IMG/VR virus record: IMGVR_UViG_2639763139_000004
Strand: one strand, 5' to 3'
DNA from: a virus
Lineage: Duplodnaviria > Heunggongvirae > Uroviricota > Caudoviricetes
Length of the DNA: 11,635 nt
Part shown: piece after piece, positions 1 through 11,635 of the stretch
How the letters are laid out: each line of letters starts with the position of its first letter
Numbering within the stretch: position 1 is the first letter of the stretch
Position numbers and translations under genes: made by a program
The notes under the pieces: model-generated
The model's database searches: none
Seen by the model: the letters and a program-made list of their open reading frames with translations, nothing else
What the model was told of the DNA's origin: nothing

Positions 1-52
1 CTTCTGATGCCATTCTATTTCAGGAAGGAGTGTCCGTTAAACTCAGGCTACC

Positions 53-145
53 TCACTGATCCAACCACTGCAAAAACCAGTAGCCGGCACTGCCGGCGGA
101 GGTGCCGTAGGCAATGCCTGTTGATATTTTTTCCATCTGATACAT
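53..145 (-). pseudogene. N-terminal fragment of an S21/EssQ-type pinholin, truncated after the first transmembrane segment
   Basis: Minus-strand ORF ends ...[30 protein letters not shown]. Dual-Met start (ATG at 143-145 and 134-136) and the [22 protein letters not shown] segment match phage 21 S holin from memory. TGA at 53-55; no downstream frame encodes a second TMD. Confidence 0.5.
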
Positions 146-5409: not shown

Positions 5410-6156
5410 CTACTTAACAACCCTCGAATGGCTAACATTCGGACGCCAGCTCTCCCAGTTAAAATTCACCCAGCGCCCGCCGTTCATGACCATGCGATCC
5501 ATCACCCGCTCGCCGAGCAATGTTTTCATCACCTCATAGTTCAGGTTTGTCAGCATCCCCACGCTGCGCATCGACGCTGTCCGGCGATCAACAATCTGGT
5601 GCAGCACCACCTGCTCGTTTTTCGTCTCGCGCTGAATGCCAATTTCATCAAGAACCAGCAGATCCACTTCGCACAGCTCCCGCAAAAATTTTTCGCCTGA
5701 CTGCCCGTCGTCATAGCTGGCGTGCAGGGCGCTCATAACATCAGCCACGGTAACCACAATCACTGTCTGACCGTCTTTCAGCAGGCGATTCCCGATAGCT
5801 GCCGCTAAGTGATTCTACCCGGTATCAGGTTTTCCGCTGAACGCAAAATTTGTACACCCGGTCATCAGTTCATCGGCGATGGATTTCGCCTGGCTTAACG
5901 CGTATCGCTGGCCGTCGTTCTGCACCTGGTAATTCGCAAACGAGCATTTACGGTGCAACGGCTGGATGCCTGAGCGATTCAGAATTTTTTCCACCCGCAA
6001 CTGGCGATTCAGGCGGTTGATCTCCTCGCTACGTTTCTGGCCTTCAGCAAGTTGCCACTCGCGCCACTCCGCTACCGTTCTGAATGGGGCGGTTACATGT
6101 GGCGGGGTCAGTCGGCGGATGCGTTCCAGAACGCCGCCTGTCGCAATATTTTTCAT
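5410..6156 (-). pseudogene. DnaC-like helicase loader interrupted by an in-frame amber codon at the Walker A lysine
   Basis: Two listed ORFs (5815-6156 and 5410-5763) are in the same frame. Translation reads ...FAFSGKPDTG-TAG-NHLAAAIGNRLL...DLLVLDEIG..., with TAG at 5815-5817 where the P-loop Lys is expected. Walker B is present downstream. Confidence 0.7.
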
Positions 6157-6547
6157 GGTCCGTTACCCCCTGAAGCCTGGCGGGATCGCACTGTCCGGCA
6201 ACGAGACGGTGTTAACCTGTCGGAGCAACGTCTCAGGCCGAACACCTTTCGGCGCGAACAGACCCTGGTATTCATTGGCGATGCTGTGTCGAATCACCTG
6301 CTCAGGTGTAAAACCCTGCTGACGGAATTTTTCCAGTTCCCGTATCGCCCTGCTCCGTTCGAATCGGTTTTCGCAATGCCTGTCTGAACCGGACCCACTC
6401 ATGCCAGAGTGTTTCCGGCAACCAATCGGGCAGCTCAATAGCCTCCGGCTCGAATTTTTTAGACGCTCGTTTTTGGCGAGGGGGATTTAGGGGGAGATCA
6501 GTATTTAGATCTTCCTCTTCCACTGGTAACGCTTTTTGATCCGTTTG

Positions 6548-6567
6548 TGTAACGCTGGCAGCGTTAC
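6548..6567. repeat. Palindrome TGTAACGC-N5-GCGTTAC, copy 1
   Basis: GTAACGCTG-G-CAGCGTTAC is a perfect 19-bp dyad inside the replisome-organizer gene. Confidence 0.6.
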
Positions 6568-6754
6568 CTTTTCGTTTCAGTTCGCGTATTTTTGTTACTC
6601 GCTCGTTTGTAACCGCCCGTTTTTTAGAGCTTTTTCCGTTATGACGTTCAAAGTTAGGTAGAGAAAGCCCACCGTCATTTTCGACCAGCCATCCAACCTG
6701 AATTAACGTATCAGCAAAACCAGACATAAAAGTGATGCGATCTATTGCACTTTT

Positions 6755-6775
6755 TGTAACGCCGCGAGCGTTACA
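6755..6775. repeat. Palindrome TGTAACGC-N5-GCGTTACA, copy 2
   Basis: TGTAACGC cgcga GCGTTACA, perfect 8-bp arms, inside the replisome-organizer gene. Confidence 0.6.
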
Positions 6776-6946
6776 ATCTGCATTACCGTCTATCATTTGT
6801 TGATCCGCCCATGCCCAGAAGCGAATAACCTTCCCTAATGCGGCATCTGGATCAATATTCAGAATCTCAGCAAGCCTGAATATTTCCGGCTTATCCGGCG
6901 TAATAACCTCGAGCTTTATCCAGTTTGAAGCCATTTGTTTTCACCT

Positions 6947-6967
6947 TGTAACGCTCGCAGCGTTACA
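6947..6967. repeat. Palindrome TGTAACGC-N5-GCGTTACA, copy 3
   Basis: TGTAACGC tcgca GCGTTACA, perfect 8-bp arms, 13 bp upstream of the replisome-organizer start codon. Confidence 0.6.
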
Positions 6968-7721: not shown

Positions 7722-8129
7722 ATGAAAAACGAAACCTTCGGTGCTCGCCTCTTACATAGGCGTAAAAAATTAAAACTGTCTCAGGCCGCATTAGGTAAGC
7801 TGGTCAAAGTGGCTCACGTAACAATTTCTCAATGGGAAAGAGATGAAACACAGCCGGCGGGGAAAAGATTATTCGCACTGAGCCAAGCGCTTCAGTGCTC
7901 ACCGACTTGGCTTCTTTTTGGGGATGAAGATAAACAACCAGGCGAACCGATCCCGGATAATCAGCCAGCCATTCTGACAGAAGATCAAAAAGAGTTACTT
8001 CAACTGTTCGACGCACTGCCTGAGTCAGAGCAAAAGGCCCTGTTGTCAGAGATGCGTGCTCGAGTTGAAAATTTCAACAAACTTTTTGAAGAACTACTCA
8101 AAGCTCGCAAAAGAAGCGCAAACAAATAA
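7722..8129 (+). CDS. dicA: DicA-like HTH repressor, 135 aa, no S24 peptidase domain
   Basis: ATG 7722, TAA 8127-8129. HTH segment LSQAALGKLVKVAHVTISQWERDETQP and tail LFALSQALQCSPTWLLFGDEDKQ...NFNKLFEELLKAR match DicA from memory. Confidence 0.85.
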   Translation: MKNETFGARLLHRRKKLKLSQAALGKLVKVAHVTISQWERDETQPAGKRLFALSQALQCSPTWLLFGDEDKQPGEPIPDNQPAILTEDQKELLQLFDALPESEQKALLSEMRARVENFNKLFEELLKARKRSANK

Positions 8130-8692: not shown

Positions 8693-8933
8693 ATACCATG
8701 CGCATTGACTGAATTCGCAAACAAAAACAGACGCGCGATACCCGGATAGTCGGTCTGCATAGTCAGATATCTGGCTGCGAATTTGATAAATATCACCGCC
8801 CTTTTCGGAAACATAAGTTCCGTCCGGGAGTTGATTATACGAACCATCTCCATGGGGGATCGTTCTCCTGAATCCTAGTGAGAGCATATATTTATGAAGC
8901 CCTTCGTAATCCTCTGGCTCAGTGGATTTGCCC

Positions 8934-9839
8934 CTATATTTCCAGACATCTGTTATCACTTAACCCATTACAAGCCCGCTGCCGCAGATATTCCCGTGGC
9001 GAGCGATAACCCAGCGCACTATGCGGATGCCATTCGTTATAATGCTCGAACGCCTCTGCAAGGTTCTTTGCTGCCGTTAACCCGTCTGGTTTGGGCATGA
9101 TACTGATGTAGTCACGCTTTATCGTTTTCACGAAGCTCTCTGCTATTCCGTTACTCTCCGGACTCCGCACCGCCGTGTTCTTCGGTTCAAGTCCCAACAT
9201 CCGGGCGAACTGGCGTGTTTCATTAGCCCGGTAGCATGAACCATTATCCGTCAGCCACTCCACTGGAGACGACGGAAGATCGTTGCCGAAGCGGCGTTCC
9301 ACCGCTCCCAGCATGACGTCCTGTACTGTTTCACTGTTGAAGCCGCCGGTAGTCACCGCCCAGTGCAGTGCCTCACGATCACAGCAGTCCAGCGCGAACG
9401 TGACACGCAGTCTCTCTCCGTTATCACAGCAGAACTCGAACCCGTCAGAGCACCATCGCTGATTGCTTTCTTTCACGGCCACTCTGCCTGTATGTGCCCG
9501 TTTCGATGGCGGTACAGCAGGTTTTCGCTCAAGCAACAGCGCATTCTGGCGCATGAGCCGGTAAACACGTTTGGCATTGATCGCAGGCATACCATCAAGT
9601 TCTGCCTGTCTGCGAAGCAGCGCCCATACCCGACGATAACCATACGTGGGCAGCTCTCCGATAACATGGTGTATACGGAGAAGCACATCCGTATCATCAG
9701 TGTGACGACTGCGGCGGCCATCCATCCAGTCATCGGTTCGTCTGAGAATGACGTGCAACTGCGCACGCGACACCCGGAGACAACGGCTGACTAAGCTTAC
9801 TCCCCATCCCCGGGCAATAAGGGCGCGTGCGCTATCCAC
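8934..9839 (-). CDS. insD: IS2 transposase OrfB (InsD), made as an OrfAB fusion by -1 frameshifting
   Basis: 301-aa frame with integrase-core motifs. Slippery heptamer A AAA AAG at 9839-9845 (minus) sits at the InsC/InsD overlap. Confidence 0.9.
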
Positions 9840-10162
9840 TTTTTTGCCCGTCCATATTCAACGGCTTCTTTGAGGAGTTCATTTTCCATCGTTTTCTTGC
9901 CGAGCAGGCGCTGGAGTTCTTTAATCTGCTTCATGGCGGCAGCAAGTTCAGAGGCAGGAACAACCTGTTCTCCGGCGGCCACAGCAGTAAGACTTCCTTC
10001 CTGGTATTGCTTACGCCAGAGAAATAACTGGCTGGCTGCTACACCATGTTGCCGGGCAACGAGGGAGACCGTCATCCCCGGTTCAAAGCTCTGCTGAACA
10101 ATTGCGATCTTTTCCTGTGTGGTACGCCGTCTGCGTTTCTCCGGCCCTAAGACATCAATCAT
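9797..10162 (-). CDS. insC: IS2 OrfA (InsC), 121 aa
   Basis: ATG 10160-10162; sequence [41 protein letters not shown]... is a typical IS3-family HTH OrfA. Confidence 0.9.
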
Positions 10163-10474
10163 CTGTTCTCCAATGACTAGTCTAAAAACTAGTATTAAGA
10201 CTATCACTTTTTAACATTGATGCAGTCTCTTTGAGAGCTGACATCGCTAATACATCACTTGCTCACTCTTCTTATTGTTGGGGTATTCAGATTATACAAA
10301 TTTCTTGTTGTTGGGGAATAACAGGAACCACCTCGCCTGACGTAGTTAAAAGCAGGCACACAACGCGAAATGACGCGGCGGTAAGTATGGCGGAGTTATT
10401 CCTTCCCCGTTGAGGACACCGGGTTGTCAGGTTGACCATACGCTTAAGTGACAACCACGCCACAACACTCCATG

Positions 10475-10530: not shown

Positions 10531-10826
10531 AAAGTGAATTTTGTGATGCGGTGAATGCGGCTGAGCGCACGCGGAACAGTTAAAAAGCGATTAGTTCCCA
10601 CGTATCGGGTGGTTATGGGTTTCCCTGTATCCGGCGTTAATTGTTAACTGGTTAACGTCACCTGGAGGCACCAGGCACCGCATCAACAAAGTTCACTTCG
10701 GTGATGAAAGGTAAGAGAAAATGTTGAATGTAGCTATTGAAAACCAGAACGGGTGGAATTATAGTGCATCTGCACCTCATAAAACGGGGGCCGGGCGTGG
10801 AAACCCGAACGTTACTCGAGCGCATA

Positions 10827-10848
10827 GCCGCGCTGAAGCGGTTTTTTT
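10827..10848 (+). terminator. Hairpin plus T7 in the leader upstream of the Rha-like gene
   Basis: AGCCGC gctgaa GCGGTT followed by TTTTTTT (10842-10848). Lies inside the rejected N-terminal extension of the Rha ORF. Confidence 0.35.
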
Positions 10849-11017
10849 ATGCGTAATGCACAGCTCCATTCAAATTATGGTGGGATGTGCAGGGCAGTCG
10901 CAAGACTGGCCGGGTTCTCGAGTGACCGGTATTTCCACCCCTGTACGTCTCACCACCCTTATGGTCGTGGAAAACCTCGGTGGTGAGTTAATTAACTTAT
11001 CACTCGAGGATGCCATC

Positions 11018-11559
11018 ATGGCTACTATCCCTGCCCTTTCTCACCCTGACGTAACCATCGAAAACGGTCGCGCTGTCACTACGTCTGTTGCGGTTGCAGA
11101 GTTCTTCCACAAACGACACGACAATGTGTTACGTGCCATCGCAAATACTGAATGCTCACCTGAATTTAACGCCCTCAATTTTGAGGACGTCACCTACACC
11201 GACACCAAAGGCGAAAAACGCCCAATGTACCAAATCACCAAAAACGGCTTCGTTTTCCTGGTGATGGGCTTCACTGGGAAAAAAGCCGCTGCATTCAAAG
11301 AGGCCTACATCGCTGATGTTCGACCGCATGGAGGCAGAACTGCACCAGAATAATACCCCGTCCGCTGACAAGATGATTCCGGGTAACGGTCGCACTCTGG
11401 TTGTGCACTTCGACGAACACGGCAATATCAGATTCACCGAAACTGTTCCTGACGGTGCACTGGTCTGTACCCTGGATACTTTCCAGTTTTATCTGGAAAA
11501 ACAGGGGTGGGCTCTTGTAAACCGGAGCGCAATTAAAAATATGACCGTAGAGCAGCTGC
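11018..11559 (+). pseudogene. Rha-family regulatory protein gene, frameshifted near 11318 and cut at its 3' end by IS2
   Basis: ATG 11018 preceded by GAGGA. Frame 1 gives ...VAVAEFFHKRHDNVLRAI...MYQITKNGFVFLVMGFTGKKAAAFKEAYIAD then VRPHGGRTAPE*. The Rha-like continuation FDRMEAELHQ... is in the +1 frame from 11319 and runs into the IS2 end at 11560. Confidence 0.55.
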
Positions 11560-11635
11560 TAGACTGGCCCCCTGAATCTCCAGACAACCAGTATCACTTA
11601 TTTAAGTGATAGTCTTAATACTAGTTTTTAGACTA
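11560..11635 (+). mobile_element. Left end of a second IS2 copy, inverted relative to the first, running off the window
   Basis: TAGACTGGCCCCCTGAATCTCCAGACAACCAGTATCACTTATTTAAGTGATAGTCTTAATACTAGTTTTTAGACTA; its last 32 nt are the exact reverse complement of 10178-10209. Confidence 0.85.

Follow-up and report, generated by a model that had tools for sequence, protein, structure and literature searches.

The window, the whole stretch of 11,635 nucleotides that was analysed, is a Rac-like lambdoid cryptic prophage remnant with a dead replication module. The initiator gene has lost 11 bp, and the gene for the helicase loader that follows it is stopped by an amber codon; the prophage belongs to the Shigella flexneri/boydii lineage. 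We assign this reading a probability of about 0.93. The case is an ordinary pseudogenised replication module, a product of ordinary prophage decay, and it has already been sequenced. A sequence-only reading of the same DNA had placed the split of the replication-initiator gene at the CAGGGCG at 6352-6346 and had regarded the whole module as inactivated. Both statements hold. Both genes for trans-acting replication functions are disrupted, one by the 11-bp deletion and one by an amber codon in the Walker A motif.

The initiator gene is spread over two reading frames

The length of the initiator span leaves a remainder of one when it is divided by three (772 mod 3 = 1), and the coding sequence is divided between two frames (Table 1). 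Frame 0 runs from the ATG at 6934 to a TGA at 6304-6302 and encodes 210 amino acids, 196 of them native and the last 14 out of frame. Frame 1 carries AIRELEKFRQQGFTPEQVIRHSIANEYQGLF...IPPGFRG and ends with a TAA at 6165-6163, exactly 6 nt ahead of the ATG of the DnaC-like gene at 6156, as the sequence-only reading had described. The frames overlap by approximately 135 nt (6438-6302). Taken together they cover 257 of the 260 residues of the orthologue with 97-100% identity, which is more than chance. Codons 1-196 are intact, and so are the ribosome binding site and the palindrome ahead of the gene. An in-frame ATG is located at about 6402 within the stranded C-terminal frame, and a small C-terminal peptide starting there is formally possible. 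The ORFs 6934..6302 and 6438..6163 should be annotated as one initiator pseudogene, and likewise the two ydaV pieces as one loader pseudogene.

Table 1. Features of the replication module and of the neighbouring regulatory genes, in window coordinates.
Feature	Position	Strand	Remarks
ydaV / DnaC-type AAA+ helicase loader pseudogene	5410..6156	-	99.2% identical to intact YdaV, 248 codons
Mutated Walker A, GKPGTGKN -> GKPDTG*N	5815..5826	-	from alignment; substitutions at 5825 and 5817
Initiator pseudogene	6163..6934	-	772 nt over two frames; intact orthologues 260-262 aa
Stranded C-terminal 61 codons (AIRELEKF...IPPGFRG) + TAA	6163..6348	-	C-domain helices 2-3 and tail
Out-of-frame tail, 14 codons DTGTGKIPSAGFYT, then TGA	6302..6346	-	tail also in S. 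flexneri P0064 and P0082
Deletion junction, single GGGCG copy kept	6346..6350	-	intact relatives: GGGCG-CTAACG-GGGCG
Native codons 1-196	6347..6934	-	N-domain, acidic linker, C-domain helix 1
Half-site GCGTTAC	6526..6532	.	linker-coding part, beside the +367 palindrome
Palindrome	6549..6567	.	+367, inside initiator gene; encodes GNAASVT
Palindrome	6756..6774	.	+160, inside initiator gene; encodes CNARGVT
Palindrome GTAACGC-N5-GCGTTAC	6948..6966	.	starts 32 nt upstream of initiator ATG; putative binding site/operator
YdaT	7434-7015		intact
cro-like gene	7645-7421		intact
cI-like repressor	7722-8129		intact

The lesion is an 11-bp deletion between direct repeats

The initiator/loader module was aligned with the closest locus, that of E. 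coli FDAARGOS_943 (L001), and with the locus of UTAK-4 (L002). Alignment with these intact orthologues showed that the initiator lesion is the loss of 11 bp (GGGCGCTAACG) between 5-bp direct repeats of GGGCG. The relatives read GCA-GGGCG-CTAACG-GGGCG-ATAC and the window reads GCA-GGGCG-ATAC, with a single gap of 11 columns against both loci. The intact 29-mer is present in FDAARGOS_943, in UTAK-4 and in K-12 (L003). With the 11 bp the codons for Ala-Asn-Gly-Ala/Gly are lost and the frame is shifted. Over the 7.65 kb in which the window is colinear with FDAARGOS_943 there are 29 substitutions, and the 11-bp gap is the only indel. Three window-specific substitutions fall in the initiator gene, two of them non-synonymous.

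The sequence-only reading had explained the split by a single-base frameshift that one extra G would restore. This does not agree with the 11-bp gap, and the proposed repair has the wrong sign: addition of one G in silico gives 773 nt that still read into stops. The frame is regained only by -1 nt, +2 nt or +11 nt. Insertion of the 11 nt yields an ORF of 783 nt for a protein of 260 amino acids that is 98% identical to homologue P0001. A repeat-flanked loss of 11 bp would be the signature of replication slippage or of a microhomology-mediated deletion. The deletion point lies at the start of helix 2 of the C-terminal domain; what remains in the truncated product would be the DNA-binding domain, the linker and helix 1, with helices 2-3 and the IPPGFRG tail lost. 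Annotation should name a repeat-mediated deletion of 11 bp as the cause, and not a homopolymer error that invites "polishing".

The loader gene is stopped in its Walker A motif

The intact orthologue of the loader scores 510 bits on PRK12377 (cut-off 389) and 306 bits on the DnaC model, and it also matches IstB_IS21. Two substitutions alter the Walker A motif of the window copy: a GGT to GAT change at 5826-5824 replaces Gly by Asp, and an AAG to TAG change at 5817-5815 turns the Lys codon into an amber codon. The amber that had been pointed out previously is therefore real, and it occupies the codon of the catalytic lysine itself. The GxxGxGK pattern of an intact Walker A is absent from the window loader.

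The deletion is inherited in the Shigella flexneri/boydii lineage

The 1.6-kb module has matches in 1820 complete E. coli genomes, 680 of which are covered over at least 80% of its length. A search with an 81-nt query centred on the junction found the deletion in none of the 1269 complete E. coli genomes that carry the segment; all 1269 matches show at most 88% identity over 92 nt of the record, and each thus contains the 11 nt.

The approximately 135-nt overlap of the frames would in principle allow a +1 shift to join them. On this rival reading, a functional initiator would come from two naturally separate genes or from programmed +1 ribosomal frameshifting. However, the two-frame arrangement, and with it the natural two-gene homologues that the sequence-only reading had allowed for, occurs in 0 of the 1269 E. 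coli genomes, and each of the 25 full-length homologues that were aligned, which represent five genera, is a single ORF. A protein made by a perfect shift would still be four residues short where helix 2 begins, and the partner loader is dead anyway. We consider a functional two-frame initiator very improbable.

The exact 44-nt junction was found in two other finished chromosomes, those of S. flexneri SFBU1023 (L004) and of the 4.44-Mb "E. coli" ECMA0423 (L005), and both also share the double change in the loader Walker A. The exact 210-aa product is on record for Shigella boydii, and the listed entries of a 243-member cluster of the truncated product include several S. flexneri as well as S. 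boydii. For the loader, a 113-aa fragment is on record for S. flexneri 5a M90T, and a near-identical 113-aa fragment is found on 330 S. flexneri contigs. Because the same lesion occurs in independent assemblies, it is a real inherited allele of the S. flexneri/boydii lineage and not an artefact. Indels are a common class of sequencing error, and the G run had been suspected as a homopolymer read error in the earlier reading, which would leave the gene intact in the organism. But a loss of 11 bp is no homopolymer miscount, the identical junction recurs in two independently finished chromosomes, and the truncated protein belongs to a cluster in which assemblies of S. flexneri and of S. boydii are among the listed sources. 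An error of sequencing or assembly thus has next to no probability.

Other, different frameshift or truncation alleles of the initiator gene are present in P0076 and P0079. As these alleles are independent, decay of the initiator gene is recurrent. Pseudogene alleles of both 210 and 214 amino acids are on record.

The intact initiator is a mosaic protein

The restored 260-aa protein aligns with PHROG 2509 ("replication initiation protein") over its full length (residues 1-260 on 1-277 of 277, E 1e-85). A member of this family is expected to be a single continuous ORF of about 255-315 amino acids, which the window copy is not; the window gene is a pseudogene of the PHROG 2509 family. A match to PHROG 6451 (YdaU-type) covers residues 107-260, and PHROG 678 ("O-like") is matched only partially, by residues 80-234. 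In a Pfam scan the restored protein hit no family at E<=0.1.

From the sequence comparison, the initiator is a mosaic with a different N-terminal domain on a YdaU-type C-terminal half, because the DNA identity to K-12 of approximately 90.5% starts only around gene position 420. The label YdaU/O-like that had been given to the gene applies accordingly to one half only. The C-terminal half is as in K-12 YdaU, and the remainder of the label had to be dropped: the N-terminal DUF1376 (PF07120), which K-12 YdaU matches at 2.7e-26, is absent from the restored protein, and there is no match to a lambda O or replisome-organizer Pfam family.

An AlphaFold model of P0001 was built from a 25-sequence alignment and has a mean pLDDT of 66.7. 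It predicts a helical N-terminal domain with a beta-hairpin (about residues 16-91), in a region of about residues 11-95 that is regarded as winged-helix-like, followed by a disordered acidic linker (about residues 96-160) and a C-terminal domain of three helices (176-188, 196-211 and 216-225) with a pLDDT of about 90.

As a single sequence, residues 168-260 resemble the C-terminal domain of DnaT (2ru8, E 9e-5; 9zbt, E 2.8e-4), and the tail NTVS.PDS.IPPGFRG is near-identical in the initiator and in DnaT. With a profile of the family, the search of PDB sequences gave a weaker result than with the single sequence and matched the DnaT tail alone (E 0.087); with NCBIfam, likewise, the only match of the restored protein was to the DnaT tail, below threshold. 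Since the family profile retrieves the tail only, the domain-wide homology to DnaT appears modest. In the preprimosome, the C-terminal domain of DnaT assembles into filaments on ssDNA (PMC13377028), and the occurrence of DnaT_C motifs among O-like proteins of phages was noted earlier (PMC5509034). A literature search on YdaU/YdaV found no functional study of either protein.

Alleles differ in how many Glu codons the acidic linker has (window 6495-6515, a GAAGAG repeat): the window encodes VEEED, P0001 has EEEEEED, and P0010 and P0069 have up to approximately 8 Glu. This is a length polymorphism of a hexanucleotide repeat, and it lies beside the third palindrome. In many E. coli copies of the initiator (homologues P0011-P0058, 376-380 aa, from E. 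coli and Salmonella) the disordered linker carries an insertion of approximately 114 amino acids (...REFRDFVAGVLEGRL...GGRIDIVVTD...GIELDR...), which from its sequence looks like an extra inserted domain. The Serratia and Yersinia initiators have a longer and different C-terminus in place of the IPPGFRG tail. Downstream of the Klebsiella (L006) and Serratia (L007) initiators there are HTH_ParB-like, DUF3268 and other genes and no DnaC-like gene. By this comparison, the C-terminal tail and the downstream partner seem to vary together.

Comparison with known initiator-loader pairs

Orthologous pairs with 96-98% protein identity are encoded by Escherichia phage vB_EcoS-666R9 and by E. coli prophages, for instance the one in FDAARGOS_943. 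They share the 6-nt gene junction, the palindromes and the neighbours with the window; in contrast to the window copies, theirs are continuous and encode 260-262 and 248 amino acids. The Rac YdaU-YdaV pair of K-12 occupies the same place after cro-like and ydaT genes and has the same ydaV loader. The approximately 90.5% DNA identity of the initiator genes (query 488-1566) includes an intact GGGCGCTAACGGGGCG. The N-terminal DNA-binding domain of K-12 YdaU is unrelated, and both K-12 genes are intact, unlike those of the window.

In lambda O/P, too, cro/cII-like genes precede the initiator gene, which is paired with a partner for helicase loading. Lambda O is likewise a modular initiator consisting of a DNA-binding N-domain, a flexible linker and a partner-recruiting C-domain, and the putative binding sites of the window initiator would, as in lambda, be located inside the initiator coding sequence beside an A/T-rich stretch. 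Unlike lambda P, the partner here is a DnaC/IstB AAA+ ATPase, and instead of the four tandem iterons of lambda there are three palindromes about 190-210 bp apart. As in E. coli DnaT-DnaC, the dnaC-like gene comes immediately after the DnaT-like one. The similarity to DnaT is weak outside the tail, though, and the N-terminal half of the initiator is predicted to be a sequence-specific winged-helix-like domain and not the DnaT N-domain. The initiator would also act in origin firing rather than in restart.

Conserved palindromes lie in and ahead of the initiator gene

A 19-bp palindrome has three perfect matches in the window, compared with 0.01 expected. The layout is common to homologues from Klebsiella, Serratia, Salmonella and a metagenome with only 53-67% protein identity; the spacers differ among them, and the arms show hardly any change (one mismatch in two sites). 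Homologues with as little as about 46% identity, among them that of Xanthomonas phage CP2, still keep position and arms; this phage and phage TL-2011b both have a perfect palindrome at +148. No such palindromes occur in K-12 ydaU, whose N-domain is a different one. In a codon alignment of the homologues with 53-67% identity, the arm codons of the +367 site show no variation at their third positions; among amino-acid-invariant degenerate codons the background of such invariance is 24% (22/92). The palindromes impose a repeated peptide motif, (C/S/G)NAxxVT, on the protein. The arm sequence is conserved and does not covary, which argues for recognition of the DNA by a protein and not for an RNA hairpin. 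Next to the third palindrome, the part of the gene that encodes the linker has a low GC content and a strong bias towards A.

On these patterns the three (locally four) palindromes might be the origin and operator sites of an uncharacterised winged-helix/DnaT-like initiator family, a proposal that we make tentatively and rate at somewhat below even odds. A literature search on the palindrome motif returned unrelated primer sequences only. In the middle of K-12 ydaU (2930-2973 of the K-12 locus) there are other inverted repeats, TGTTCAAACA / TGTTTGAACA and neighbours, which may, judged from their sequence, be equivalent binding sites and related to oriJ.

Twelve other prophage genes are preserved

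Twelve other prophage genes are full length and 98-100% identical to their E. coli counterparts. Besides the regulatory genes in Table 1, full-length genes include those for DUF977, QueH, HokD, DUF1367, DUF1364 and DUF1133. An intact initiator/loader module is found in the isolated phage vB_EcoS-666R9. Both disabling lesions of the aligned 7.65-kb stretch sit in the 1.5-kb replication module; this clustering of two lesions is suggestive only.

The truncated N-terminal product might have been kept as a functional protein, acting as an autorepressor or as a decoy that occupies the origin against superinfecting phages with GTAACGC sites. Such a role would be in line with the intact first 196 codons, upstream palindrome and ribosome binding site and with the wide distribution of the allele in the lineage. 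Yet the gene lies behind an intact repressor and is probably silent, the predominance of non-synonymous changes among its window-specific substitutions (2/3) is consistent with relaxed constraint, and the independent alleles P0076 and P0079 suggest plain recurrent decay. We therefore regard retention for function as unlikely; residual activity of the fragment, DNA binding without loader recruitment, is conceivable.

Several features outside the replication module were also recorded. A gene for a Rha-family regulator (window 10721-11609, + strand) is split between two frames and is a third prophage pseudogene: residues 1-198 and 185-280 of the orthologue are found in different frames that overlap at approximately 11277-11317. 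Between the DUF1391 gene and the Rha gene there is an IS2 copy (approximately 8934-10207, - strand) with a TnpB of 301 and a TnpA-like protein of 136 amino acids. Colinearity with the FDAARGOS_943 locus ends at 8922. At the late end of the prophage, four tRNA genes (826-1136, - strand) are present as in FDAARGOS_943: Gly-tcc, Thr-tgt, Arg-tct and one with a CAT anticodon, which is annotated as Ile in that relative. The sequence at both ends of the window (1-61 and 11560-11635) is found repeated or rearranged in related loci, close to an IS600 in FDAARGOS_943 and beside the IS2 copy in ECMA0423. This fits a window that is a whole draft contig bounded by IS repeats.

Discussion

In an intact module, the N-terminal domain of the initiator would bind the GTAACGC-N5-GCGTTAC sites within and ahead of its own gene. 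By analogy with DnaT-DnaC and lambda O-P, the DnaT-like C-terminal domain would then engage ssDNA and a DnaB-YdaV complex. Neither trans-acting replication function would be made from the Shigella prophage and, because both genes are disrupted, it would not replicate autonomously after derepression or excision. Inactivation may have been selected, as it would avoid lethal replication in situ, or it may equally be neutral decay.

The locus is one more case of prophage decay in Shigella, in which autonomous replication is gone and regulatory and cargo genes are left, and its importance is small beyond correct annotation. In the Shigella copy the palindromes in cis are intact and both trans factors are dead. 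If the palindromes do serve as origin and operator, the locus would be a silent origin that could be fired in trans by a superinfecting relative or occupied by the N-terminal fragment. The palindromes could also make the origin of a widespread, unstudied family of phage initiators easily accessible to experiment.
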